Below, one piece after another: positions 5,254-50,910 of a DNA stretch of 64,000 nucleotides. The stretch spans positions 128,663 to 192,662 of the forward strand of contig CAZJEO010000001.1 of NCBI GenBank assembly GCA_964545065.1, written 5' to 3'. Origin of the DNA: Candidatus Woesearchaeota archaeon (lineage in GTDB: Archaea > Nanobdellota > Nanobdellia > Pacearchaeales > GW2011-AR1). Position 1 is the stretch's first letter. Each line of letters begins with the position of its first letter. Below the pieces are notes generated by a model that ran no database searches, was not told the origin of the DNA, and worked only from the letters and a program-made list of their open reading frames with translations. The translations under genes and the position numbers were made by a program.

Positions 5254-7743
5254 ATGAAAAAAATATATAAAATAGAAGGAATTACTTGTGCTAGTTGTGC
5301 TGGGCATATAGAAAGGGCCGTGAAGAAAATTAAAGGTGTAACAAATGCAAGTGTGAATTTTGCTAACAAAAAAGCATATATTGAAGGAGATTTTAATGAT
5401 AATGAGATAAAAGAATCTGTTTCTAAAATTGGTAATTATAAAGCAATATCAGAAGATGAAAAAGATAGTGAGGTTAAAAAAGAAGGAAAAGATTCTGGAA
5501 AAGAACAAACAACGACTTTTACTGTTAAAGGTTTAGATAATCCTCATTGTAGTATGACTGTTGAAAAAGCTGTTAAAAAATTGAAAGGTATTGGTAAGGT
5601 TGATATTAATATTAATACTCACAAGGCTAAAATTACTCATTCAATTCCTAAAGAGGAAATAATCAAAGCAATAAATGATGCAGGTTATGAAGTTTTGAAA
5701 GAAAGTGAAGATGAAAAAGATTCGGAAATTAAAGAGATGAACAAGGCTAAAAAAAGAATGTGGTATGCTTGGATATTTGCTTTGCCTGTTGGTATATTAA
5801 TGATTTTGGAAATGTTCACTAAATTGGAAGTTCCTTATATTGATTATATTTTTGTTTTAGCTGCTATCCCTGTTTTGTTTATTTTTGGTTGGAAGACTTA
5901 TGTTTCTGGGTTGAAGTCTGCAAGGTATCTTGCATTTAATATGGACTTCTTAATTATGCTTGGAACATTTGCAGCATTTATTACTGGGATAATCGGGTTT
6001 TTTCTTCCTATAGAAAATTATGCTGCAATAGCCGCAATGATTATGGCTTTTCATTTGACAGGGAGATATGTTGAAGCTAAGGCAAGAGGGAAAGCATCTG
6101 AAGCTATAAAAAAATTACTTGAGTTGGGTGTAAAAACTGCGGTGGTTATTAGAAATAATTCCCCAAGGGATGACTCCTCAAAGGATGACTCTGGTGAGCC
6201 GTCTGGTGAGCCTAAGGAAATTGAAATTCCTATTTCTGAAGTTAAGATTGGAGATGTGATGATTGTTAAACCAGGAGAAAAGATTCCTACAGATGGTATT
6301 GTTATTAAGGGTGAATCTGCGGTTGATGAATCAATGGTGAGTGGAGAGAGTATGCCTGTTGAAAAAATGAAGAATTCAAAAGTTATTGGAGCTACAGTTA
6401 ATCAAGATGGTGTTTTATATGTTAAGGCGGAGAAGATTGGTAAGGATACTTTTTTGTCTCAGGTTGTTAAGTTAGTTGAAGAGGCTCAAGGAAGTAAGAT
6501 TCCAATACAGGAATTTGCAGATAAGATTACTCGGTACTTTGTTCCTGTTGTTATTGTGGTAGCTGTTTTAACGATTTTCATCTGGCTTGTTTTTCCAGAA
6601 GTAATGCAAAGTATAGCTGGTTTTTTTGACTTTCTCCCTTGGATTAATTTTAATGTTGGGCATGTTGCTCTTGCATTATTTGCTGCAATAGCTGTTTTAG
6701 TTATTGCTTGTCCTTGTGCCTTGGGTCTTGCTACACCAACTGCATTAATGGTTGGTTCTGGTTTAGGAGCTGGGAAAGGTATCTTCATTAGAAGGGGGGA
6801 AGCTATTCAAACAATGAAGGAAATTAAGACTATTATGTTTGATAAAACTGGAACAATAACGAAAGGGAAACCAGAAGTTACAGATATTATTGGAGATGAA
6901 AAGCAGATCTTAAAGATAGCAGGTTCTGTTGAGAGTGTTTCAGAGCACCCTCTTTCTAAGGCAATTGTAAAAAGAGCTAAGGAAAAGAGAATTAAATTGT
7001 TAGAAGTTAAGAACTTTAAAGCTAAGAGAGGTAGAGGAATTGAAGCTAGTTTAGGAAGAAATAAAATTCTTATTGGAAATAGAAAATTAATGACTGAGAA
7101 TAAAATTAGTTTTGAAGGTTATGAAGATAGAATTATAGAACTTGAAAATGATGGTAAGACTGTTATGATTTTATCTGATAATGGCAAAGTTTTAGGGCTC
7201 ATAGCTGTTGCAGATACTTTGAAACAAGATGCTAAAAAAACTATTTCTGAATTAAAAGAAATGGGTCTTAAGACTGTTATAATTACAGGAGATAATGAAA
7301 GAACTGCTAAGGCCATTGCAAAGCAAGTTGGTATTGATTCTGTTTTAGCAGATGTGTTACCTGATGAAAAAATGAAGAAAGTTATGGAGCTTCAGAAGAC
7401 AGGAATGGTGGCTTTTGTTGGCGATGGTATTAATGATGCTCCTGCTTTGAAGCAGGCAAATGTTGGAATTGCGATTGGAACTGGAACAGATATTGCAATT
7501 GAATCGGGAGATATAATTCTTGCTAAGGGTGATTTGCAGGGAGTTGTTTCTGCAATTAAGTTAAGCAAGGAAACATTCAAGAAAATAAAACAAAACTTGT
7601 TCTGGGCTTTTGGTTATAATATTGTAGCTATCCCTCTTGCGATAATTGGAGTTTTGCATCCTGTGATTGCTGAGATAGCAATGGCGACTTCTTCATTGAC
7701 TGTTGTGGGGAATGCTAATCTTTTGAGAAGGAAGAAGATTTAG
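5254..7743 (+). CDS. copA: copper-translocating P1B-type ATPase with two N-terminal HMA domains
   Basis: [13 protein letters not shown] motif, [19 protein letters not shown] and GDGINDAP motifs. 829 aa. Confidence 0.9.
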
Positions 7744-7923
7744 GAAGAGAAGGGAATTTTAATTTGTTGGGAAGGGAGAGGATATAGGAAGAGAGGGAGA
7801 GGGGAATTTATGGATACCAAAATCTTTAATAAATCCTTAAAATAGCAGTTTTAAATTGATTTTATGCGGTTTATCTACAAAAGATAACGATAAATTTATA
7901 AATGCCCTTATCATGAATAATTT

Positions 7924-13112: not shown

Positions 13113-13225
13113 TGAGGAAACCCTTCCCTTCCCAAAACCCTTAAATATCCCCTTCCCCTAAAACAATCATGGCAGAGGCGAAGCTCAATGCATTAAAACT
13201 TGGTTTAGCTGGAGGAATAGTTGGA
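13113..13225. repeat. ~110-nt direct repeat (left copy): CT-rich promoter-like tract plus the first ~19 codons of the 14023 gene
   Basis: About 85% identical to 13966-14082, including ATGGCAGAGGCGAAGCT...GGAATAGTTGGAG. Confidence 0.6.
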
Positions 13226-13309
13226 GTATTACTTCTTTCTACAAATAAACATCGCTCTTCTTTTTTTATCAAAAAAGACGGTTTCAAGAACCTTGAAATC
13301 CTTAGATAA
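13169..13309 (+). pseudogene. truncated duplicate (46 codons) of the small membrane-protein gene at 14023
   Basis: Encodes MAEAKLNALKLGLAGGIVG then diverges to a stop. Its 3' part overlaps the antisense methyltransferase gene. Confidence 0.45.
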
Positions 13310-13921
13310 ACTCTTTTTTATCTTTTCAACAGGATAAATGAACTCATCATATCTATCTTTTTCAATTTGATAAAGACCGCTTTTTACTTTCTTAAAATAT
13401 GTTGTATCCCATGTTAATTTATTTCCATTAACAATCATATTGTCATAAACATATCCTGTTGGAGTTTCTTCAAGTTTTACTGTCTGTTTTTTCATGTCTT
13501 CCAAATGCTTCTGGGTGCGCATATCAAAGATGAATAATCCATTATCGTTAAGATGGTCATAAGAATGTTTGAATGTTGACTCCCAATTTTTGAATGGTTT
13601 AACCTCATTAATACATTCGTGCACTGAAAAAATTACATCAAATTTCTCGTTGATTTTGAAACTATCCATGTTTTGAACAACAAGATTAGCATTAGGGGTT
13701 ATCTTTTTTGCAGTTTTAATGTATTCTTTGTTAAGATCTAATCCAACTTTCTTAAATTTTTTGAAATGAAAAAGTACAACACCTAATCCAACACCGAGCT
13801 CTAAAACTGTTTTGGATTTTGGATGATATTTCCTAATAGCGTTAAGAACTCTATCAGCTCTTACTTTAGCTGCTTTCTTGTCAATATTCTTCTCCCATAT
13901 TTTAGTCAAGTCAGATACCAT
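13229..13921 (-). CDS. class I SAM-dependent methyltransferase
   Basis: Motif I VLELGVGLGVV. About 230 aa with a Rossmann-fold MTase layout. Confidence 0.65.
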   Translation of the reverse strand: MVSDLTKIWEKNIDKKAAKVRADRVLNAIRKYHPKSKTVLELGVGLGVVLFHFKKFKKVGLDLNKEYIKTAKKITPNANLVVQNMDSFKINEKFDVIFSVHECINEVKPFKNWESTFKHSYDHLNDNGLFIFDMRTQKHLEDMKKQTVKLEETPTGYVYDNMIVNGNKLTWDTTYFKKVKSGLYQIEKDRYDEFIYPVEKIKKSLSKDFKVLETVFFDKKRRAMFICRKK

Positions 13922-13965
13922 ATTTTAATATTACTTCTAGATTAATTAAATCTTTCTCCTTAATC

Positions 13966-14082
13966 TTTCCTACCCTCTCCTCTCCCAAAACTCTTAAATA
14001 TCCCCTTCCCCATAACATAAACATGGCAGAGGCGAAGCTTAATGCATTAAAACTTGGTTTAGCTGGCGGGATAGTTGGAGCC
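13966..14082. repeat. ~110-nt direct repeat (right copy), the promoter and 5' end of the intact gene
   Basis: See the left copy. Confidence 0.6.
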
Positions 14083-14342: not shown

Positions 14343-14984
14343 ATGAAACTAGAAAAAATTAATTCCAGACTAAAACAAAAAGATACATTGGATATTATAA
14401 AATGGTCTTATGATACATTTAAAGATTCGTTGATTATGACATCAAGTTTTGGGAAATACTCTGCTGTAATGTTGCACTTGGTTAAACAAATTGTTCCAGA
14501 CATTCCTGTTATTTTTATAGATACAGGATATTTAACTCAAGAGACTTATTTTTTTGCTGAAAAACTCAGGAAGGATATGGATTTGAATCTTTATGTTTAT
14601 AGCTCAAAGAGAACAACTGCTATGCAAGAGTGTGTTGAAGGGTTGCGGTGGAAGGATGAAAAAAGTAAAGAATTTATGGAATTCAAATATGAGGTAAAAG
14701 TTGAACCATTAGAGAGAGCATTAGTTGATTTAGATGTAAAAGCATGGCTGTCAGGAGTAAAAAAAGTTGATAGTGAATATAGAAATAATTTTAACATAGT
14801 TATGAAGGATAAAAGCTTGTATGAAATTCGCCCAATATTTTATTGGACTAAAGAAGAAGTAAAAAAATATGTGTCAAAAAATAATCTTGTGATTAATGAA
14901 AATTATTTTGATATTTGTAAGGGGAAAAAACAGGAAGAGGAATGTGGAATTCATTGTATGAGAGGTAATGGTGAAGGAATATGA
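14343..14984 (+). CDS. PAPS reductase-family (PP-loop superfamily) protein
   Basis: IFIDTGYLTQETYFF and the overall CysH-like layout. Confidence 0.55.
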   Translation: MKLEKINSRLKQKDTLDIIKWSYDTFKDSLIMTSSFGKYSAVMLHLVKQIVPDIPVIFIDTGYLTQETYFFAEKLRKDMDLNLYVYSSKRTTAMQECVEGLRWKDEKSKEFMEFKYEVKVEPLERALVDLDVKAWLSGVKKVDSEYRNNFNIVMKDKSLYEIRPIFYWTKEEVKKYVSKNNLVINENYFDICKGKKQEEECGIHCMRGNGEGI

Positions 14985-20001: not shown

Positions 20002-22209
20002 ATGATTCAAAAAAATGAGGGGATGATCTCATTGATAAAGGGACAGATTGGTTCTAATGGAAAAGGAGGTTGGCCTGTTGCTGTTAGAGATAGAATTGCT
20101 TTTCCTAAATCTACTGAATTAAAAGTGACAGATGCTAATGTTGCTGTAACTTTTTTATGGACAATGCGAGATGCAGTACTGCCAAATCTTGAAAAGGAAA
20201 ACTTGGCAATAGCTACTAATTTCTATACTCCGGCAGGATTGCAAGGAATGATAAGAAACATTTTGGGAAATCCATTCATTAGATATATTATAATGATGGG
20301 AGAAGAGTATTCCTCAAAAACTGAAGGAGATAAAATATCTGAGTTAACAAGTGGGAATGCTATACGGGCTTTTTTTGCAAAAGGCGTAAATGAGGATAGA
20401 AAAATAGAGGGTTTTGAAAGTGCTGTTTATTTTGATAAAAATATTCCTTTGGAACTTCTAAAGGAGATTAGAAAAAATGTGGAATTGATTGACTTAAATA
20501 AAACAATGCCTGGTGCTAACTTGGATGAAAAAATTCAAGAAGCTAATAGATTAATTAAAACATTAGAGAGAAAAGAACCTTTTTTAGAACAGCCATTGAT
20601 CTTTGATTATGAATCTGTAGAAGAATCTTTCCCTTATGAAGGGGGTCCGATAATTGTTCATGGCAGTAATATTCCTGATGCATGGATAAAAATGATATAC
20701 AACATAAATAGATATGGCAGGCAAAATTTAATGAATGCTAATACAGATAGGTGGGTTAAGGAAATTAATGACATGGTGGTTGTAATTCATAACCCTCAAG
20801 ATAGAGATCTTTCTGTTAATCCTTTTTTAGTGCCTTTAACAATAGGAAAAATTGAAGCATATGAAAAAGAGATTTTATCCCCTATATTGCCAGAAGGAAA
20901 AGCATACACTTATGGAAATGAACTTAGAGCATATCATTATCCTTCTGCAAAAGAAATTAAAGAATTAGTTAATTCACAGGATTATAAGGATTTTGAATTT
21001 GGTCAGGGAGATTGGTTAGATAAAAATGTTTCTTACAAAGAAGATTTTTGTGAAATTAATCAGATTGAAGATCTTATTGATGTATTAAAAAGAGACCCAT
21101 ATTCAAAAGCATGTGTTGCAATAACATGGCATTCTTCTAAAGAATTAATGAGAAAACACAAAAGCAGTCCATGTCTTGTTTTTTTGCAGGCGCTTATTCA
21201 AGATGAAAAATTAAATTTAACTGTTTTTTTTAGAAGCCATGATATGACTCAGGGATGGCCTGAAAATGCCTATGGTTGTGCAGCTATACAAGAAGAAATT
21301 GCAAAAGCAGTTGGAGTTGACTCTGGAATATTAACTATAATTTCTGGTAGTGCACAAATTTACAATAATTATTATCAGCAGGTTGAAGAAATGCTTAGCA
21401 AATATGATAATGTTTTAAATTGTAATGATTCACGAGGAAATTATCAAATCAAAATTCATGATGATGAAATTATCCTGACACTATTACATCCTGAGACAGG
21501 AAAAATATTAGAAGAAATTAAAGGGAAATCTGCGTATGAAATAAAAGATAAAATATCAATGCATGGTTTGGAGACAGGTCACGCAATTTATATTGGGACT
21601 GAACTTGCCATGGCAGAGGTGGCGATTAAGATGGGAACAGATTATGAACAAGATGAAACAATAGGAAAACCAAATGATACTTTGACACAAAATAAAATTC
21701 CTGAAGATAAATTAGGTGAGAGGCCCAATTGGGAGGAGTTTTTTATGGGCTCTGCACTTCTTGCTGCATCAAGGTCAAGTTGTAGGTATTTGCATACTGG
21801 TGCAGTAATTGTTAAAGATAAAAGAATTTTATCAACTGGTTATAATGGAGCTCCTCCAGGAATAACTAATTGTCTTGATAGGGGTTGTAGAAAAGAAAGA
21901 GAAGGTATTGGCTTTGATGAGAAAGGTAAAGCAGTTTGCAGGGGAATTCACGCAGAAATAAATGCCTTGAGTCAAATTGCACGCCAAGATCTTAAAGGAT
22001 CTCAAATGTATACTATTTATCTCCCTTGTTCTGCATGCGCCAAAGCTATTGCAGGTTCTGGAATTGATGAAGTAATATATCTTAAAATGTATAATGAACC
22101 TGATTCATTAACAAGAGAAATTTTTGCTGAATCTGGAATAAAGTTAAGAAAACTGGATATTAATTTTGATAAGATATTTAATAAAAAGATTATGTTCTAT
22201 GACAAATAA
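20002..22209 (+). CDS. multidomain protein: unknown N-terminal domain + thymidylate-synthase-like (ThyA fold) domain + dCMP/cytidine deaminase domain
   Basis: ThyA-like SPCLVFLQALIQDEKLNLTVFFRSHDMTQGWPENAYG (catalytic Cys plus RSxD). C-terminal HAEINAL...PCSACA zinc deaminase motifs. Confidence 0.6.
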   Translation: MIQKNEGMISLIKGQIGSNGKGGWPVAVRDRIAFPKSTELKVTDANVAVTFLWTMRDAVLPNLEKENLAIATNFYTPAGLQGMIRNILGNPFIRYIIMMGEEYSSKTEGDKISELTSGNAIRAFFAKGVNEDRKIEGFESAVYFDKNIPLELLKEIRKNVELIDLNKTMPGANLDEKIQEANRLIKTLERKEPFLEQPLIFDYESVEESFPYEGGPIIVHGSNIPDAWIKMIYNINRYGRQNLMNANTDRWVKEINDMVVVIHNPQDRDLSVNPFLVPLTIGKIEAYEKEILSPILPEGKAYTYGNELRAYHYPSAKEIKELVNSQDYKDFEFGQGDWLDKNVSYKEDFCEINQIEDLIDVLKRDPYSKACVAITWHSSKELMRKHKSSPCLVFLQALIQDEKLNLTVFFRSHDMTQGWPENAYGCAAIQEEIAKAVGVDSGILTIISGSAQIYNNYYQQVEEMLSKYDNVLNCNDSRGNYQIKIHDDEIILTLLHPETGKILEEIKGKSAYEIKDKISMHGLETGHAIYIGTELAMAEVAIKMGTDYEQDETIGKPNDTLTQNKIPEDKLGERPNWEEFFMGSALLAASRSSCRYLHTGAVIVKDKRILSTGYNGAPPGITNCLDRGCRKEREGIGFDEKGKAVCRGIHAEINALSQIARQDLKGSQMYTIYLPCSACAKAIAGSGIDEVIYLKMYNEPDSLTREIFAESGIKLRKLDINFDKIFNKKIMFYDK

Positions 22210-23311: not shown

Positions 23312-23383
23312 GGCTCCATAGCTTCCCAAGGGATGACCTCTTCGAGGCCTCAGCCTTTTTCGGTTGCTTCGCAGTCACCATAC
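23312..23383 (+). mobile_element. mini-element copy A: a 12-nt duplicate of the tRNA-Lys 5' end plus a 60-nt GC-rich insert with the TCCCAAGGGATGACC core
   Basis: GGCTCCATAGCT at 23312-23323 repeats the start of the tRNA at 23384. Core at 23324-23338. Together with the preceding AGCTATGG the 5' duplicate forms an 8-bp perfect inverted repeat. Confidence 0.55.
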
Positions 23384-23457
23384 GGCTCCATAGCTCAGCC
23401 TGGCAGAGCACTGGACTTTTAATCCAGGTGTCGGGGGTTCAAATCCCTCTGGGGCCA
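23384..23457 (+). tRNA. tRNA-Lys (anticodon TTT)
   Basis: Cloverleaf: acceptor GGCTCCA/TGGGGCC, D-arm GCTCAGCCTGGCAGAGC, anticodon stem CTGGA/TCCAG with loop CTTTTAA, T-arm GGGGGTTCAAATCCCTC. Confidence 0.8.
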
Positions 23458-23583: not shown

Positions 23584-25848
23584 ATGGATATGAAAACACC
23601 AAACCAAAATAGCAAACATGTAAAATTGACTAATATGCTTAAGAAATTAAGAATAATTGGTAATTCAGAAACCTATGAAAATATGAAAGACCGTGTTTTT
23701 AGTATCGTTACTAGCGAAGAAATTAAGTACGGGTCTAGTAAACAACAAATACAAGAATACAAACAAAAAATGATGAATCGATTGGAAAGTCAAGAATTTG
23801 TGCCTAGTTCAATTATCCTTACTAATGCTGGAAGATACGAAGATAAACCTTTAGCAGCATGTTCTGTGCCTCCAATAAATTTAAAGGAGGATTATTCAAA
23901 AATAAAACAAATCGTTGACATTTATCATGAAAAGGGAATGGGAACTGGTTTTAACTTTGATGAAACAGAAGATCCTGTTGAAATGCTAGAATTTTTAAAC
24001 GATATCGCAATAGAAGGCCAAAACAATGGCTTGCAAGACAGACCTGTGGGAAATATGGGAATTATTTCTAGTGATCATCCCAAGATATATAACCTAATCA
24101 AATACAAGGATGGGAAGAATAAAAATCGGGAATGGATTTTTAATATTTCTGTTAACTTAAAAGAAGATTTTATGGCTGCATTGCAAAATGGAGAAGATTA
24201 TCGGCTTAAAGATGGTACGATAATAAATCCAAATGATTTGTTTAATGAAATTTCAAAATCTGCTTGTTCCTGTGGAGATCCTGGAATATTTTTCATGAAG
24301 AGATTTAATCAAGATAACCCTGCTCCAAAATTAGGGGAATATAAGTCACTTGCTCCGTGCGGAGAAGTTGCACTTGCTGAAGGTGAAACGTGTCAATTTT
24401 CTTATATTAATATATCCAAGTTTGTTAAAAATAAAAAAATAGATTACGACTCTCTAAAAGATGTAATCTATGATGGAGTAAGATTTTTAGATGATACCTT
24501 GGATATAAGTATTAGCAGATATGGTAATAGAAAAAGTGAAAATATAATGAACCAAAAAAGAAAAATTGGATTAGGTATTTGTGGTCTTGCTGATGTGTTT
24601 ATTAAATGCGGGATTCCTTATGATTCCGAAGAAGCCTTAGACCTAAGTGCTGATTTAATGAGTTTTATTACTTATAATTCAAAAAAAGCGTCTATTAAAC
24701 TAGGTAAAGAAAGAGGTATTGCGCCTGCTTTTGAAAAATCTAAATTAAAACAAGATTTTATTGAAAAAAAATATGGTAAATATGCAACAAATACTGTGGG
24801 TAAACAAGACTGGAAAAATTTAAGTGAGGAAATTAAAGCAAAAGGTATCAGAAATATGATTACTACTATTCTACCACCAACAGGAAGAAGCTCCATGATA
24901 ATTTATGCTTCTCCTGCGATTGAGCCAATCTTTTCTTTAGAATTAAATGATGAAATGCGAAGAGATTTGATGAATAAGTTAAAGAAAAGAGGGCTGCCTT
25001 TTGAAAATTTACCAACTACCATCAATAAAAAAGACCTCCCTTCTGATTTAAAGGAGATATATAAAACTTGTTTAGAAATTGACCCAATTTCTCAGATAAA
25101 AATATGCTCTGCTCTTCAGAAATTCACCGACGGAGCAATTTCTAAAACCATAAACATTAATTCTACGTCTACTCCTAATGACATAAGAAAGATTTATCTA
25201 CAAGCATATGAAATGGGATTAAAAGGCATTACTATTTATCGGGATGGCAGTAAAAATCTTCAACCAATGAAATTGCAAAAAGGAGGTAAAATGGAAATTG
25301 AATTAAGGGCTTTTGTTAAAGATTTTGATCCTGTTAAAAATTGTTTGAAAGAAATTGGTGCACATAAAACTGACGAAACAGAAATTGAAGATATTTGGAT
25401 TTGTGACAAAAATATAACAAATTATGAAGATGCAAAGATGAATAAGGTTGGTTCTTATGGTCTTAGATTTAGGATTCAAAAAGGTAGGGCAAATGAAATT
25501 TGTATTAAAACTATCATCAACGAAAAGGATCACCAGATTTTTAGCGAATATGAAACAAGTTTTGATGATCTTGAACAAATGAAAAATATATTTAAGATTC
25601 TTGGCTTTAAGATATTTTGTGTGTTAAAGAAAAAGCGAGAAACATATTCTTTTAAAAATATGAAAATTAACTTGGAAGATATTGAAGGATTTAAATCTTG
25701 TATTGAAATTGAAATCTTAGGAGAAGATAATTTTGAAGAAAAGAAGAAGAAACTACATGAGATAATGGATATTTTAAAAATAAATAAGGAAGACAGAATT
25801 AATACAAGTATTACATCCCTATTTATGGAAGAAAATTCTTTCAAATAA
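23584..25848 (+). CDS. nrdJ: class II (B12-dependent-type) ribonucleotide reductase fused to a C-terminal CYTH (CyaB-like triphosphate tunnel) domain
   Basis: RNR active-site region LAPCGEVAL and TTILPPTGRSS. C-terminal ~190 aa starting MEIELRAFVKDFD with EIEIL match the CYTH domain pattern. No nrdB nearby. Confidence 0.65.
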   Translation: MDMKTPNQNSKHVKLTNMLKKLRIIGNSETYENMKDRVFSIVTSEEIKYGSSKQQIQEYKQKMMNRLESQEFVPSSIILTNAGRYEDKPLAACSVPPINLKEDYSKIKQIVDIYHEKGMGTGFNFDETEDPVEMLEFLNDIAIEGQNNGLQDRPVGNMGIISSDHPKIYNLIKYKDGKNKNREWIFNISVNLKEDFMAALQNGEDYRLKDGTIINPNDLFNEISKSACSCGDPGIFFMKRFNQDNPAPKLGEYKSLAPCGEVALAEGETCQFSYINISKFVKNKKIDYDSLKDVIYDGVRFLDDTLDISISRYGNRKSENIMNQKRKIGLGICGLADVFIKCGIPYDSEEALDLSADLMSFITYNSKKASIKLGKERGIAPAFEKSKLKQDFIEKKYGKYATNTVGKQDWKNLSEEIKAKGIRNMITTILPPTGRSSMIIYASPAIEPIFSLELNDEMRRDLMNKLKKRGLPFENLPTTINKKDLPSDLKEIYKTCLEIDPISQIKICSALQKFTDGAISKTININSTSTPNDIRKIYLQAYEMGLKGITIYRDGSKNLQPMKLQKGGKMEIELRAFVKDFDPVKNCLKEIGAHKTDETEIEDIWICDKNITNYEDAKMNKVGSYGLRFRIQKGRANEICIKTIINEKDHQIFSEYETSFDDLEQMKNIFKILGFKIFCVLKKKRETYSFKNMKINLEDIEGFKSCIEIEILGEDNFEEKKKKLHEIMDILKINKEDRINTSITSLFMEENSFK

Positions 25849-33086: not shown

Positions 33087-33536
33087 ATGCAGGACATGAG
33101 ATACCTTAATTTATTTGGTAGGGTTACTCAAGTTAATACGCGGTTTTGTTTTAAGTACAATGAGGGACTTGTTTTTTGTGTTCCAAAGCCAATGATTTTC
33201 AAAGCTGTTGGAAAAGGTGCAAGCAATATTAGAAAATTAAATGAAATTCTCGGAAAGAAAATAAAAATTATTGCAAGTCCGCGAGGAATTGAAGATGCTA
33301 AATCTTTTATTGAAAGTATTGTAAAACCAGTTACATTTAAGGGTTTGGAAGTTAAGGATAATACCCAAACGGGCATACCCAAGGAGGGCACGAGAACCTC
33401 TAACGAGGCAAGTGAAATTGTACTTACTGCAGGAATGCAGAGTAAGGCGGCTTTGATTGGCAGGAATAAGAGAAGGCTTTTAGAGATGCAAAAAATTGTT
33501 CATGATTTTTTTGGGAAAGAGTTTCGGATTATTTAG
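33087..33536 (+). CDS. nusA: archaeal NusA-like KH-domain transcription factor
   Basis: Two KH-type GxxG regions (AVGKGASNIRKL, ALIGRNKRRL) and the conserved position after rpoA. Exact start uncertain (candidate ATGs at 33069 and 33087). Confidence 0.6.
   Translation: MQDMRYLNLFGRVTQVNTRFCFKYNEGLVFCVPKPMIFKAVGKGASNIRKLNEILGKKIKIIASPRGIEDAKSFIESIVKPVTFKGLEVKDNTQTGIPKEGTRTSNEASEIVLTAGMQSKAALIGRNKRRLLEMQKIVHDFFGKEFRII
33371..33399. repeat. 29-nt repeat copy inside nusA (GGGCATACCCAAGGAGGGCACGAGAACCT)
   Basis: 27/29 match to 2854-2882. In-frame, encoding GIPKEGTRTS in the inter-KH region. Confidence 0.6.
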
Positions 33537-38524: not shown

Positions 38525-38559
38525 AGTGCAATAATTCTTTTAAAGAATCTTTCTAATTA
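38525..38559 (+). promoter_or_regulatory. 35-nt promoter-like repeat AGTGCAATAATTCTTTTAAAGAATCTTTCTAATTA (copy 1)
   Basis: Exact second copy at 38962-38996, with a partial copy (TAGTGCAATAAT) at 39329-39340. Contains a palindromic TTCTTTTAAAGAA around a TATA-like centre, just upstream of the starts at 38565 and 39004. Confidence 0.5.
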
Positions 38560-38564
38560 TTTTT

Positions 38565-38963
38565 ATGGCGAAAAAAAGTTTTTCATTATCTAAAGACCAA
38601 GTTCCGCTAGGAGTAAAAGTTCATGTCCCTGGAAATTCAAGAGGGATTGTTAAGTTAATTAAAGATTATATTGAATTTGTTTCATTCTATTATGCAGACG
38701 ATGGAGAAAAATTTAATCCTCCAGAAAATGCTAGGTTCTTGCCAAGTGAACAAATTGATTTAGAAGATACTCGAGATAATACAACATATGTCTTGTTGAG
38801 AAGAGGCCTAAAACGAGTAATAAGTATGCATGGCAAATTGCTTGATGATGGTTCTAAATCAAAGAAATTTAGAGAACCAATTTACCCTCGGGGCAAAGTA
38901 AAACTTGCTCAAGTTGGTGGAACATTTTATAGTAGCTATGAATTTGGGCAACCAAAACATTAG
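38565..38963 (+). CDS. hypothetical protein
   Basis: 132-aa ORF preceded by the 35-nt repeat. Confidence 0.4.
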   Translation: MAKKSFSLSKDQVPLGVKVHVPGNSRGIVKLIKDYIEFVSFYYADDGEKFNPPENARFLPSEQIDLEDTRDNTTYVLLRRGLKRVISMHGKLLDDGSKSKKFREPIYPRGKVKLAQVGGTFYSSYEFGQPKH

Positions 38964-38996
38964 TGCAATAATTCTTTTAAAGAATCTTTCTAATTA
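38962..38996 (+). promoter_or_regulatory. 35-nt promoter-like repeat (copy 2)
   Basis: Exact duplicate of 38525-38559. Confidence 0.5.
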
Positions 38997-39003
38997 AATT
39001 AAT

Positions 39004-39309
39004 ATGATAAGCTGGGAAGGATATGCTTTAAGCCTCTGCGAATTTGAGGTTTTAGTAACAGATAAATCTCATAAAAGATATGGGCAGAGAGGAAGGATAA
39101 CAGCACACCATGGTTGTAGGGGAAAAGGAAGTTATGATATTAAATTTGTGGACGACGAGGGAATAGAAGTTGAAGAAGAATTTTCTGGGAAATATGGTGA
39201 TGATCCACAAGGTACAAAAATGTTTTATAGGTATGATAATGATTTGGGAGCGATTTTTGATAAAGAGGGTCGAGGACCAAATAGTTTGGCTAGAGAGCTG
39301 TTGAGGTAA
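39004..39309 (+). CDS. hypothetical protein
   Basis: 101-aa ORF preceded by the 35-nt repeat. Confidence 0.4.
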   Translation: MISWEGYALSLCEFEVLVTDKSHKRYGQRGRITAHHGCRGKGSYDIKFVDDEGIEVEEEFSGKYGDDPQGTKMFYRYDNDLGAIFDKEGRGPNSLARELLR

Positions 39310-45360: not shown

Positions 45361-45556
45361 GTAATTGATAGGAAAAGGAGATAGATAAATTTATTGGATA
45401 TTAGCTGCTTCTAAGATTAATGGCTCAACATCGGCTTTCAGACACGATGTTTCGCTAAGAATATAATTAATGTGAAAGAAATTTATTACGCTGATTATTA
45501 GATTATCAGTTTATTAATTTGCGAATGTTAATGAGCAAGAATTTTTTATTATCAAA

Positions 45557-45804
45557 CCTTCAAACTAACTATCTTACTAATTCCATCATGCATTTGCAGA
45601 CAACCCGCTGGTTTTCTTTACTCAAGCCCACACTCGTTTCTGTGGATTAGACTCGTGTAAACTCTCGGACTTTCCTCCCCCCAAGGGATGATTCTGGTGA
45701 ACCTCAAAGCATTGAACCCGATTTCTAATGCAATCCGGTGAAATCGCGAGCATGATGGGAATTTATACCTTTAAACTAACTATTTTTGAGATGCCATCAT
45801 GCAT
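45557..45804. mobile_element. mini-element copy B at the smc 3' end: a 37-nt direct duplication encoding the smc C-terminus, flanking a ~174-nt insert with the CCCCAAGGGATGA core
   Basis: DR1 45557-45593 and DR2 45768-45804 (28/37 nt identical). Both translate on the minus strand to MHDGISKIVSLKV-stop. The insert shares GCCCACACTC, CGTGTAAACTCT and the core with copy C. Confidence 0.65.
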
Positions 45805-49332: not shown

Positions 49333-49437
49333 CGGGAACCTCCAGCGGGTTCTTCGCAACTCCAGCTACCCAGCAGGAAGCTGACGAATTTAATTTCAAA
49401 CATTAAGATAAAAAATCAGAGAGGTTTTTAAGGTTTG

Positions 49438-49743
49438 CTAGAATTTGTACAAATATTTTTTCACATTTTGAACTTTTCCGAATTTTATAGGAATTCCTTC
49501 TTTTTTTAAGAACGCTATTTTATTTTTTGTTCCAGAAGCAAAACCTCCGACTTCTCCATTTGAATTTATGACCCTATGACATGGCACTTGTGGGGCGTAG
49601 GGGTTTTTGTTCATTGCTGTTCCTACGGCTTGATATGCTTTTGTGTTTAGTGCTTGAGCAAGAGCTTTGTAGGTTGTGATTTTTCCTTTTGGAACTTGCC
49701 TTAACAAGGCGTAACATTTTTCTGAGAATGATTTTTGTGGCAT
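49438..49743 (-). CDS. ogt: methylated-DNA-protein-cysteine methyltransferase-like protein (C-terminal domain only)
   Basis: PCHRVINSNG active-site motif. ATG at 49743-49741 gives 101 aa (the track's longer ORF uses a GTG start). Confidence 0.7.
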   Translation of the reverse strand: MPQKSFSEKCYALLRQVPKGKITTYKALAQALNTKAYQAVGTAMNKNPYAPQVPCHRVINSNGEVGGFASGTKNKIAFLKKEGIPIKFGKVQNVKKYLYKF

Positions 49744-49895
49744 TTTGAAAATAGCGGGGGCTGCTCGAGCCCACACTCAGAGTTATTAATTGTAATTTTC
49801 TCTCTTCGTGTAAACTCTTCCCAAGGGATGACCCAAGAAGGGCCTCGGAATTTGAGTTCAAATCCCTTATTGATTTCATTTTAAAAATAGCGGGG
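49741..49895. mobile_element. mini-element copy C between tRNA-iMet and ogt: a 21-nt direct duplication (tRNA 3' end plus ogt start) flanking a 113-nt insert with the TCCCAAGGGATGACC core
   Basis: CATTTTGAAAATAGCGGGGGC at 49741-49761 and CATTTTAAAAATAGCGGGGGC at 49875-49895. Core at 49819-49833. Also contains GCCCACACTC, CGTGTAAACTCT and a T-loop-like GTTCAAATCCC. Confidence 0.65.
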
Positions 49896-49963
49896 GCGGG
49901 ATTTGAACCACGCGACCTCCGGGTTATGGGCCCGACGAGCACTCCAGACTGCTCCACCCCGCT
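49889..49963 (-). tRNA. tRNA-Met (CAT), initiator-like (A1:U72, AGCGGGG start)
   Basis: Reverse complement reads AGCGGGGTGGAGC...TCGGGCCCATAACCCGG...TTCAAATCCCGCCCCCGCT. Anticodon loop CCCATAA. Confidence 0.75.
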
Positions 49964-50047
49964 AATAATTGGTGTGTCAGATGACTTTTAAAGTTTTCTT
50001 AATCAAATAATAAAGCTTATAAGTTTAAGATTATATTCTAAAAGTAT

Positions 50048-50129
50048 GCCCAGATGGCGGAGTGGTTAACGCACTAGATTGCTAATCTAGACCCTTCGGG
50101 GTGCGTAGGTTCGAATCCTGCTCTGGGCG
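50048..50129 (+). tRNA. tRNA-Ser (anticodon GCT), type II with long variable arm
   Basis: Acceptor GCCCAGA/TCTGGGC. Anticodon stem-loop CTAGA-TTGCTAA-TCTAG. Variable arm CCCTTCGGGGTGC. T-arm GTAGGTTCGAATCCTGC. Confidence 0.8.
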
Positions 50130-50138
50130 TATATTAAA

Positions 50139-50705
50139 ATGAAATTCATTATTATTCACGGATGTCCTTCAAATGCAGAGAAAGCTATGAGCCCTGAAAC
50201 AAGGACTTATGATAAACATTGGATTCCTTGGACTAAAAGAGAATTGTCTTCAAAAGGAATTGAAGTAGAAACACCCCTTATGCCTGAACCTTGGAAACCA
50301 GATTATAATAAATTTAAAGAGGAATTTGAAAAATATAGTGTTGGAGAAGATAGTGTATTAATTGGTCATAGTTGTGGATGTTCTTTTTTAGTTAGATGGC
50401 TTGGAGAAACAAAACAAAAAATAAATAAATTGATTCTTGTGGCACCGTGGAAAATTGAAGAAGGGGCTAGTGAATCTAAAAAAGCATTTTATGAATTCTC
50501 GATTGATACAACTATCAAAGATAGAGTTAAAGAAATCACAATGTTTACTGCTAATGATGAAGATGAAGATGGGAAGAAAGGTTTGAAAATGTTTCACGAA
50601 GCTTTTGGAGGGAAAATTATTGAACTTCAAGGAAGAGGACATTACACACTGGGGGACATGGGAACAGAAGAGTTTCCCGAATTAATCAAAGAAGCAACCC
50701 AATAA
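50139..50705 (+). CDS. small alpha/beta serine hydrolase (RBBP9/YdeN-like)
   Basis: IIIHGCPS near the N-terminus and LIGHSCGCSF (GxSxG nucleophile elbow). 188 aa. Confidence 0.6.
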   Translation: MKFIIIHGCPSNAEKAMSPETRTYDKHWIPWTKRELSSKGIEVETPLMPEPWKPDYNKFKEEFEKYSVGEDSVLIGHSCGCSFLVRWLGETKQKINKLILVAPWKIEEGASESKKAFYEFSIDTTIKDRVKEITMFTANDEDEDGKKGLKMFHEAFGGKIIELQGRGHYTLGDMGTEEFPELIKEATQ

Positions 50706-50735
50706 ATCAAACTTTAATATAAAATTATATATAAT

Positions 50736-50822
50736 ATTGCTAATCTAGACCCTTCGGGGTGCCCACGGTTTCCCAAGGAGGGATGACCTCGCTTTGCTCA
50801 GCCTCGAATCCTGCTCTGGACG
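50736..50822 (+). pseudogene. partial tRNA-Ser copy (anticodon loop to 3' end) with mini-element copy D (41 nt, core TCCCAAGGAGGGATGACC) replacing the 5' T-stem
   Basis: ATTGCTAATCTAGACCCTTCGGGGTGC and TCGAATCCTGCTCTGGACG match the tRNA-Ser at 50048 (1 mismatch). The insert at 50763-50803 replaces GTAGGT. Confidence 0.65.
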
Positions 50823-50910
50823 TTTTTTTAATAATTCTCATTTAATTAAATTTATAAATAATAATTACTTATCATATTATATAAAAAAGAGTTGAAAGGG
50901 GGGTGATGAA

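Follow-up and report, generated by a model that had tools for sequence, protein, structure and literature searches.

How did the 3′ part of a tRNA-Ser gene come to be repeated behind a single protein-coding gene, and what is the short GC-rich sequence that interrupts the second copy? These questions are raised by positions 50,048 to 50,822 of a 64,000-nt stretch of contig CAZJEO010000001.1 of a Candidatus Woesearchaeota archaeon (GenBank assembly GCA_964545065.1); the whole stretch that was analyzed is referred to below as the window. The evidence, which consists of sequence comparisons, suggests that the locus is probably a decayed insertion scar in the tRNA-Ser(GCU) gene of a Pacearchaeota-type DPANN archaeon and that an unrelated mini-element inserted into it afterwards. 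As a feature, the islet itself is of an ordinary kind, and it is the family to which the mini-element belongs that is the unusual part of the locus and matters more.

Three tRNA genes were called in the window by ARAGORN and Rfam, one of which is tRNA-Ser (anticodon GCT in the gene). The intact gene, on the attL side of the proposed scar, occupies 50047..50130 on the plus strand according to ARAGORN and reached a score of 65.9 bits with the Rfam tRNA model (boundaries 50047/8-50129/30). The partial copy lies on the same strand and consists of two segments. Segment 1 (50736..50762) is identical to the tRNA at 27 of 27 nt and comprises the anticodon loop, the 3′ strand of the anticodon stem, and the variable arm (tRNA positions ~31-48); in the repeat search it appeared as an exact 27-nt repeat of 50078-50104 at a distance of 658 nt. 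An exact 27-mer in a 64-kb window with a G + C content of 32.6% excludes an origin by chance. Segment 2 (50804..50822) comprises the T-loop, the 3′ strand of the T-stem, the 3′ acceptor strand, and the discriminator base, and matches 50111-50129 at 18 of 19 nt (second repeat block, TCGAATCCTGCTCTGG[G/A]CG). The spacer between the two blocks is GTAGGT, six nt of the T-arm, in the tRNA and the 41-nt sequence CCACGGTTTCCCAAGGAGGGATGACCTCGCTTTGCTCAGCC (50763-50803) in the copy. An earlier note on this DNA, made without database searches, had described a repetition of the 3′ two-thirds of the tRNA with the 5′ T-stem replaced. ARAGORN, Rfam, and the repeat search confirmed both the repetition and the replacement, but the copy, which spans the tRNA from position 31/32 (A31/T32) to the discriminator, covers only slightly more than half of it. 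It is followed by a run of seven T (50823..50829, plus strand), presumably the original oligo-T terminator of tRNA-Ser displaced by ~690 nt downstream.

The working tRNA-Ser is followed by TATATTAAAATG, whose ATG opens the sole ORF (open reading frame) between the copies. As the earlier note had correctly stated, this cargo gene (50139..50705, plus strand) codes for a small alpha/beta serine hydrolase: the 188-aa product was assigned to PF06821 from the ORF list and a profile match and carries a GHSCG nucleophile elbow. No other ORF of at least 60 aa lies wholly between the copies on the strand of the tRNA. The start codon is located 8 nt past the discriminator base of tRNA-Ser.

The SMC protein encoded 1.4 kb upstream was used as query to obtain 28 related loci from Pacearchaeota, Woesearchaeota, and Nanoarchaeota. 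The closest syntenic relative, L026, has an SMC protein that is 85% identical and is collinear with the window for SMC, RNase HII, tRNA-Met, tRNA-Ser, and DTD2. The hydrolase was found neither in L026 nor in the 27 other syntenic loci, 17 of which do have DTD2. Relatives thus lack, at the same site, the DNA that lies between the repeats. L026 has a different gene downstream. One further locus, L070, encodes a hydrolase that is 94% identical in the protein search and again lies behind tRNA-Ser, connected through the same junction GTATATTAAAATG with the same 8-nt distance. In this comparison the gene, whose strain-specific presence the earlier note had proposed to check, is found behind tRNA-Ser in the window and L070 and is missing from 28 syntenic loci. 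The cargo differs in L070, where an additional acetyltransferase gene is found 3′ of the hydrolase gene. Behind it, L070 has the same AT-rich junction as the window, AAAATTATATAT.ATA joined to TGCTAATCT, so that the AT-rich right end of the islet (50706..50735, plus strand) is common to both. The partial tRNA-Ser of L070 extends without interruption from the anticodon loop to the 3′ end, and the block of identity has the same start as in the window. Both loci also share the box AAAGCTTATAAGTTTA upstream of tRNA-Ser. Between the window and L070, the 674 nt that begin with the tRNA promoter and include the hydrolase gene are 91.2% identical, as compared to 79.6% for the adjacent RNase HII region.

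The location of the terminator is informative as well. In relatives without an insert a T-run mostly follows tRNA-Ser directly, and in the window, L026, and L003 a T-rich tract is found behind the distal partial copy, which indicates that this copy represents the original 3′ end after its displacement. Taken together, the L070 junctions, the absence of the islet from L026, and the placement of the T-tract are the anatomy expected of an attL-cargo-attR scar with variable, decaying cargo. Of the reading offered in the earlier note, a remnant of integration into tRNA-Ser with the core of a repeat family at the junction, the scar anatomy thus stood up to the comparison with relatives. The integrase is putative, and the family core does not mark the junction, as discussed below.

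The preferred scenario of a decayed scar would comprise four steps. A mobile DNA that brought along its own version of the tRNA-Ser 3′ half would have recombined in the anticodon loop, an event that has left a visible architecture and for which the enzyme is deduced. The imported 3′ half would now complete the working tRNA (attL), and the displaced original 3′ half would have been pushed downstream together with its oligo-T terminator (attR). As the comparison of relatives shows, the element has then been reduced to its cargo, which is the hydrolase gene in the window, hydrolase and acetyltransferase genes in L070, and nothing in L026. Since the gap of 8 nt leaves no space for a promoter of its own, the hydrolase gene is probably read from the tRNA promoter, with tRNA-Ser as the probable promoter-bearing first cistron. 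Processing of the tRNA 3′ end would free an almost leaderless hydrolase mRNA, the transcript would end at the displaced T-run at 50823-50829, and the dead half-tRNA with its mini-element would form the 3′ untranslated region. In the last step, which the comparison likewise shows, a GC-rich element of 33-41 nt landed in the T-loop of the dead copy.

The start of the repeat exactly at the anticodon loop in both the window and L070 favors a site-specific recombinase. Within the same genomes, a further dozen repeats begin in the T-loop, and many tRNAs of these loci have a repeat that reaches from one of the two loops to the 3′ end, which is evidence that scars of this type are common here. Williams (2002) reportedly named both loops as the classical sublocations at which tyrosine integrases cross over. 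In archaea, integrating elements have been documented to leave partial tRNA genes behind (PMC9897764; PMC3293823).

Several observations weigh against a single integrase-mediated event. A search for integrase, transposase, and Cas1 genes that covered the islet, the window, and the adjoining 10 kb at both ends found none; the involvement of an integrase is therefore inferred, and the region is classified as a remnant rather than as an element. No free or circular form of the element was found either. The G + C content of the hydrolase gene is host-like (33.9%, compared to 32.6% for the window). Segment 1 is identical to the tRNA at all 27 positions despite a divergence of ~9% between the islet and its counterpart in L070, whose copy differs in the variable arm; this identity requires gene conversion or a more complex history, with gene conversion over 658 nt being the likeliest explanation. 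In L070, the acceptor stem of the resident tRNA-Ser differs from that of its own attR, for which a single simple integration is insufficient. Finally, long direct repeats also flank inserts at sites other than tRNAs (one insert is at the 3′ end of the SMC gene, and a methyltransferase gene is enclosed by a 104-nt repeat), which hints at a more general, not tRNA-specific process behind repeat-flanked inserts.

Some of these points are also those on which a serious rival explanation rests, namely that a circularized foreign DPANN fragment containing the tRNA-Ser 3′ half and the hydrolase gene entered the resident tRNA-Ser by a Campbell-type single homologous crossover, without an integrase, because the tRNA is the only stretch conserved enough between the lineages. 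Such a crossover would account for the lack of a recombinase gene in the islet, window, and flanks, and it agrees with a tRNA-Ser 3′ half that is nearly invariant across lineages next to a variable 5′ half, with the long direct repeats (38 and 104 nt) around inserts at protein-gene ends in the same genome, and with the apparent exchange of the islet between lineages (91% versus 80% identity). Random end-points, however, would not be expected to produce repeat starts bounded by loops, as seen at the anticodon loop in the window and L070 and at the T-loop in a dozen cases, and a homology of 45 nt is short for efficient recombination. A crossover of this kind is accordingly regarded as unlikely, although it has to be taken seriously next to the decayed integration scar.

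The tRNA-Ser genes themselves have a mixed composition. The D-arm and acceptor of the tRNA-Ser(GCU) in the window are those of the distant relative L003 (70% SMC identity) and not those of its closest relatives L026 and L070, which suggests that the gene or its 5′ half was replaced or horizontally exchanged. The 5′ half in the window is L003-like, L070 and L026 have another D-arm in common, and the acceptor of the L070 attR is of the window type; judged from these patterns, tRNA genes seem to have been exchanged between lineages.

The distribution of the hydrolase was also assessed. A total of 1876 homologs were retrieved; the best 120 listed are mostly 68-79% identical (a range that leaves out the protein of the query itself and the one 94% match in L070), and Patescibacteria are among them. 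Homologs with 72-78% identity occur in unrelated settings, some of them bacterial (candidate phyla radiation, CPR), next to genes for RecO, YkuD, and peptidase M23, and one source annotation of such a context names Patescibacteria. A distant homolog in L071 is located near a tyrosine integrase gene (PF00589). No adjacent tRNA was found beside the homologs in these other contexts (L071-L074, L080-L083), and the linkage to tRNA-Ser is therefore specific to the lineage of the window and L070. Because the family is large and well conserved, occurs in bacterial and tRNA-free contexts, and has a tyrosine integrase neighbor in one case, the gene is, as far as can be judged from these comparisons, a widely exchanged accessory gene. 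The islet thus offers a clean, dated case of the gain and loss of a single accessory gene at tRNA genes in ultra-small archaeal genomes and suggests how a gene of a family common to CPR bacteria may borrow the promoter and terminator of a tRNA.

The 41-nt sequence that takes the place of GTAGGT in the T-arm of the partial copy (50763..50803, plus strand; core TTCCCAAGGAGGGATGACC at 50770-50788) is referred to here as an E-type mini-element. GGTT at 50767-50770 is arguably residual T-arm, in which case the true insert would perhaps be ~33 nt located after T55. The element is missing from the partial copy in L070, which indicates that the 41 nt are a later, separate insertion and not the integration junction; the placement of a family core at the junction in the earlier note was not borne out for the same reason. 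The suggestion in that note to look for the same sequence at other tRNA genes was productive: in L076, which belongs to the same genome and lies just outside the window, a near-identical element (14360-14400) is found in the duplicated 3′ end of tRNA-Leu(TAA). By a base count made by hand on the alignment, 27 of 29 nt match the element of the window (CCTACGGTTTCCCCAGGAGGGATGAC...), and its position behind GGTT of the T-loop is identical.

An interrupted tRNA fragment could also be a functional RNA, such as a split tRNA-Ser 3′ half, a spliced intron-bearing remnant, or a selected tRNA-like 3′ element or leader. The AT-rich sequence upstream of the copy can be read as an archaeal TATA box, the T-run follows directly as a terminator, and three lineages (window, L026, and L003) have a partial tRNA-Ser copy with an interruption in its T-loop. 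Inserts are located at 12/13, 55/56, and 58-60, positions that moreover resemble non-canonical archaeal intron positions (PMC4090602). Against this stand the lack of any call by ARAGORN and by Rfam, even at E-values up to 10, the destruction of the 5′ T-stem by the replacement of its strand, the lack of a 5′ half and of a GC-rich complementary leader in the AT-rich upstream sequence, and a predicted fold that is no better than that of shuffled sequences (z = +0.7). Sequence and cargo also vary between the relatives, L026 having another gene downstream. A second functional tRNA and a conserved leader had been named in the earlier note as the alternatives to a scar; with no tRNA call and with differing relatives neither was observed, and a function of the partial copy as RNA is considered highly improbable.

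Archaeal introns with a bulge-helix-bulge (BHB) motif were searched with an enumeration script of our own that required 3-nt bulges separated by 4 bp, at both junctions. No strict motif was found in the E, B, L026, L076 tRNA-Leu, NusA, and CopA copies of the mini-element family, and relaxed counts were near or below the means of shuffled sequences, so that an identity as BHB introns was rejected and a spliced remnant is likewise disfavored. The copy near tRNA-Met has an excess of BHB-like pairings (5, compared to 0.2 in shuffled sequences).

The mini-element in the dead tRNA copy belongs to a small family in the window. The sequence CCCAAGGGATGA occurs four times and its variant CCCAAGGAGGGATGA once, all on the plus strand, and a related sixth copy is located at 33378; the chance expectation for the 19-mer core with up to three mismatches in the window is 0.02. 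Members are GC-rich hairpin elements of 27-50 nt that occur in the loops of duplicated tRNA ends (Ser, Lys, Met, Leu, and Gln). The family is modular, with the building blocks CCC-AAGGA-GGG, CCUC-N4-GAGG, CUCCC-AGAAGAA-GGGAG, and a 10-bp GAGUUUACAC/GUGUGGGCUC hairpin. In the 28 SMC-anchored relatives the core was found only in L026, indicating that the family is restricted to a few lineages.

Two members lie in frame within protein-coding genes of the window. An A-type element (6161..6212, plus strand) forms an in-frame insertion of 18 aa (54 nt) in the P-type ATPase CopA, recognizable as a gap of 18 residues in comparison with PDB entries 3j08 and 7r0g, and the same A-type module also sits behind tRNA-Lys in L044. 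An F-type element (33376..33408, plus strand; the copy at 33378) adds 11 aa (33 nt), IPKEGTRTSNE, in frame to archaeal NusA. Nearly all NusA homologs have 138 aa and lack the insertion, and the DNA alignment with L079 and L078 shows that it is a nested one. In-frame hosts of the family are CopA, NusA, PolD, and a nuclease, and the element is codirectional with the gene in all 8-10 cases seen. The stop-codon region of copA is itself covered by a 44-nt tandem duplication (7708-7795, 80% identity), which is followed by purine-rich GGGA/GAGG repeats.

Three sister cases in the window combine a member of the family with a duplicated gene end. At 23312..23355 (plus strand), a 12-nt copy of a tRNA-Lys 5′ end, a 26-nt B-type element (23323), and CTCAGCC precede the real tRNA-Lys (23384-23457) at a distance of 28 nt; in L044 the upstream flank of tRNA-Lys is the same but contains a different insert. 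At the 3′ end of the SMC gene (45556..45804, minus strand), a 38-nt direct repeat surrounds a non-coding insert of 173 nt (copy at 45680). The repeat re-encodes MHDGISKIVSLKV*, so that the last 13 codons and the stop codon are present twice with synonymous differences, and L026 has a single SMC 3′ end without an insert. At its start the insert has 9 nt of the repeat in antisense orientation (CCATCATGC); it also includes GGGAGGAAAGUCC, which resembles CR-I of RNase P (minus strand), and ACAGAAA...GGGCUU. At tRNA-Met (49741..49897, minus strand), a 21-nt direct repeat (49877-49897 and 49741-49761), corresponding to the tRNA 3′ end plus flank, surrounds an insert of 115 nt (copy at 49818) that contains an 11-nt antisense T-loop, the core, and the 10-bp hairpin and is homologous to the SMC-linked insert. 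L026 lacks a counterpart of positions 49333-49885, a gap that takes in the tRNA-Met insert.

Side observations at these tRNAs concern their arrangement. tRNA-Met (49887-49964) is inverted relative to tRNA-Ser in the window and L026, and the two genes form a same-strand tandem in L070 (431-508) and in most relatives (L010, L011, L013, L016, and L024 were compared); the difference amounts to an inversion of local extent, beside which inverted copies of the T-loop are located. In Pacearchaeota loci it is common for a tRNA to be partially duplicated, either at the 5′ end (positions 1 to 11-15) or at the 3′ end (from the T-loop onward), with an insert of 50-80 nt. Partial tRNA duplications were recorded in L043 (1100-1300), L022, L003, L007, L008, L011, L015, and L070. 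The tRNA-Gln of L043 has three tandem 3′ ends, L003 has an AT-rich insert family of its own at two tRNA-Ser genes, and a cold-shock gene forms a one-gene islet behind tRNA-Ser in L022.

A metagenome scan with the F-type sequence yielded 16 loci, all of them AT-rich and DPANN-like. Where F-type elements are located in ORFs they always have the direction of the gene and are read in one of two frames, IPKEGTRTSNE or TQGGHENLSRG. They occupy the same site in orthologs of the PolD subunit DP2, with 100% identity over 35 nt between flanks that have diverged and contain indels, and the same site in a nuclease of two genomes. Four tRNAs, namely tRNA-Ser of L026, tRNA-Gln of L043, tRNA-Lys of L044, and tRNA-Leu of L076, are followed by an F-type element and then by 17-22 nt that repeat the sequence of the respective tRNA from the T-loop to the 3′ end, and behind tRNAs the element is mostly preceded by a 9-13-nt antisense copy of the T-loop. 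Compared to the filled L044, the 3′ side of tRNA-Lys in the window appears to be an empty site, based on flank homology judged by eye, with unclean gap placement in the MAFFT alignment. F-type elements with partial internal or tandem duplications were seen in L042 (~5035, minus strand) and L076 (15676-15730; CCCAAGGGTGTACCCAAGGAGGG, CCCAAGGAGGGCACGAGAATCCCAAGGAGGGACAAG), which suggests slippage or repeated hits at the same site.

The recurring order of tRNA, antisense T-loop, element, and direct repeat could result from site-specific recombination with secondary hits, from an integrase with a long ruler, or from template switching during replication. A second rival explanation for the locus as a whole is a local target-duplicating process that copies mini-elements and cargo into tRNA ends and leaves direct or inverted target duplications. 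This could be a transposase- or casposase-like integrase producing duplications of 17-22 bp or longer, or template switching of the MMBIR/FoSTeS type (microhomology-mediated break-induced replication/fork stalling and template switching). Casposons duplicate the 3′ end of tRNA or EF-2 genes. The host-specific 17-22-nt repeats around one F-type element at four tRNAs, the resemblance by eye of the window tRNA-Lys 3′ side to an empty site relative to L044, and inserts that typically open with 9-13 nt of antisense host T-loop, with possible microhomology (GAT) at the junctions, speak for such a process. Yet the repeat of ~45 nt plus insert in the window and the attR of L070, whose acceptor differs, are unlike a duplication of the resident gene, the remnant in L007 has a foreign acceptor, the copies embedded in ORFs have no flanking duplication, and no terminal inverted repeats, cas1, or transposase gene were seen. 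For the locus studied here, target duplication appears improbable compared to a decayed scar left by integration into tRNA-Ser.

Other identities of the mini-elements were considered and rejected. The family does not consist of MITEs (transposable elements of the miniature inverted-repeat type), as the E, B, F, and A types have no terminal inverted repeats, the copies in ORFs lack a duplication, and the tRNA copies have repeats of variable length (11-45 nt). No Rfam match to the mini-elements was found at gathering thresholds or at E-values up to 10. The related copy at 45594-45766 was tested as RNase P RNA by seeking a covariance-model match with CR-I, CR-IV, CR-V, and P4; it contains the CR-I-like 13-mer GGGAGGAAAGUCC, but had no Rfam hit at E-values up to 10 and is an insertion relative to L026. 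A box C/D or K-turn small RNA was rejected since a box C-like GGGAUGA is present without box D, guide logic, or an Rfam hit. A derivation of the F-type element from tRNA-Ser, tempting though a gapped alignment looks, has no statistical support for the consensus (z = 0.4 against shuffled sequences); only the L076 variant reached z = 3.9, probably a local patchwork. The core is not part of a tRNA T-arm (TTCCCAAG, as in tRNA-Ser of L022), because the positions do not fit. Matches of TTCCCAAGGGATGACC to viral contigs (L053-L069) lie in unrelated, mostly high-GC contexts and are attributed to chance, and a scan for bacterial-type promoters and terminators was set aside as unsuited to an archaeal host.

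The spread of the mini-elements is a matter separate from the history of the islet. Within these genomes they have entered the loops of redundant copies of tRNA ends and, as in-frame insertions, also loops at the surface of proteins. No described family matching them was found, and the literature on repeat elements of DPANN archaea and on in-frame archaeal repeats gave nothing specific. It is tentatively proposed, as a possibility still more doubtful than probable, that they represent an undescribed class of very small (27-50 nt), sequence-constrained, strand-specific DPANN insertions (types E/B, A, D/C, and F) that target D- and T-loops of tRNAs at non-canonical intron positions as well as the coding strands of essential genes, with a gene-preserving duplication of 17-22 nt at tRNAs. 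If this is true, their conservation above that of the surrounding coding sequence would point to a life cycle or function at the RNA level (removal in the manner of an intron, a hairpin that binds a protein, or copying from an RNA template) or to a new integrase whose molecular ruler is long, and not to inert junk. If they are truly mobile or active as RNA, they might also serve as a living model for the origin of short insertions, perhaps including non-canonical tRNA introns and tRNA fragments in archaea, whose origin is still an open question (PMC4090602, PMC3293823). On the practical side, mini-elements and tRNA end-copies will confuse tRNA and gene annotation of DPANN metagenome-assembled genomes.

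Further repeats and unusual ORFs were observed elsewhere in the window. A 104-nt direct repeat with 80% identity (13123-13226 and 13977-14080) comprises a promoter-like region and the first ~24 codons (MAEAKLNALKLGLAGG...) of a small gene, and its copies flank a methyltransferase gene on the opposite strand, which makes 13123-14080 another one-gene islet with a duplicated gene end, in this case not of a tRNA. A 42-nt repeat with 93% identity (38525-38566 and 38962-39003) is located directly upstream of the ORFs 38565-38963 and 39004-39309 and is probably a duplicated promoter or cassette boundary. Two fusion ORFs are unusual: the first (20002-22209, 735 aa) combines MtrA-like, thymidylate synthase, pterin-binding, and dCMP deaminase domains, and the second (23584-25848, 754 aa) a ribonucleotide reductase and a CYTH domain.

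Among known systems, the islet is most readily compared to the tRNA scars that integrative plasmids and viruses leave in archaea (SSV, pNOB8, and pTN3-type tyrosine integrases), with which it shares an intact tRNA that has foreign DNA behind it and then its own 3′ part as a direct repeat, a repeat start in the anticodon loop, lineage-specific cargo, and a fragment that is not a working tRNA. It differs in that no integrase is left, the cargo is a single gene of 0.57 kb that apparently depends on the tRNA promoter and the displaced terminator, and the remnant carries a secondary insertion. Fragments of tRNA genes have been discussed previously (van der Gulik et al., 2023, PMC9897764; Sugahara et al., 2012, PMC3293823). 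The mini-elements resemble the transposed BHB introns found in tRNAs of the Thermoproteales (Fujishima et al., 2010, as summarized in PMC4090602), which are near-identical short sequences in different tRNAs at non-canonical intron positions of the D- and T-loops, but they lack a BHB motif, their tRNA hosts are dead partial copies, and the same elements are translated in ORFs. Insertion of casposons and similar elements likewise leaves a tRNA or protein gene intact because its 3′ end is duplicated; here, in contrast, cas1 and terminal inverted repeats are absent and the repeats are 11-45 nt long instead of a fixed 14-15 bp. The Rickettsia palindromic elements (RPEs), reportedly described by Ogata and colleagues in 2000, are also short multi-copy hairpin repeats in a reduced, AT-rich genome that form in-frame hydrophilic loop insertions in essential proteins and occur in RNA-gene contexts. 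The hosts here are CopA, NusA, PolD DP2, and a nuclease, and the family shows the behavior of an RPE-like in-frame selfish repeat in CopA (+18 aa) and NusA (+11 aa), but the copy at 50763 does not. RPEs are mentioned in a review of MITEs (PMC10969869). Compared to RPEs, the mini-elements are shorter (27-50 nt versus ~100-150 nt), modular, and archaeal, they are codirectional with the gene in every in-frame case seen, and they are strongly tied to duplicated tRNA ends. If they are truly mobile or active as RNA, they would be an archaeal counterpart of the in-frame selfish repeats of Rickettsia.

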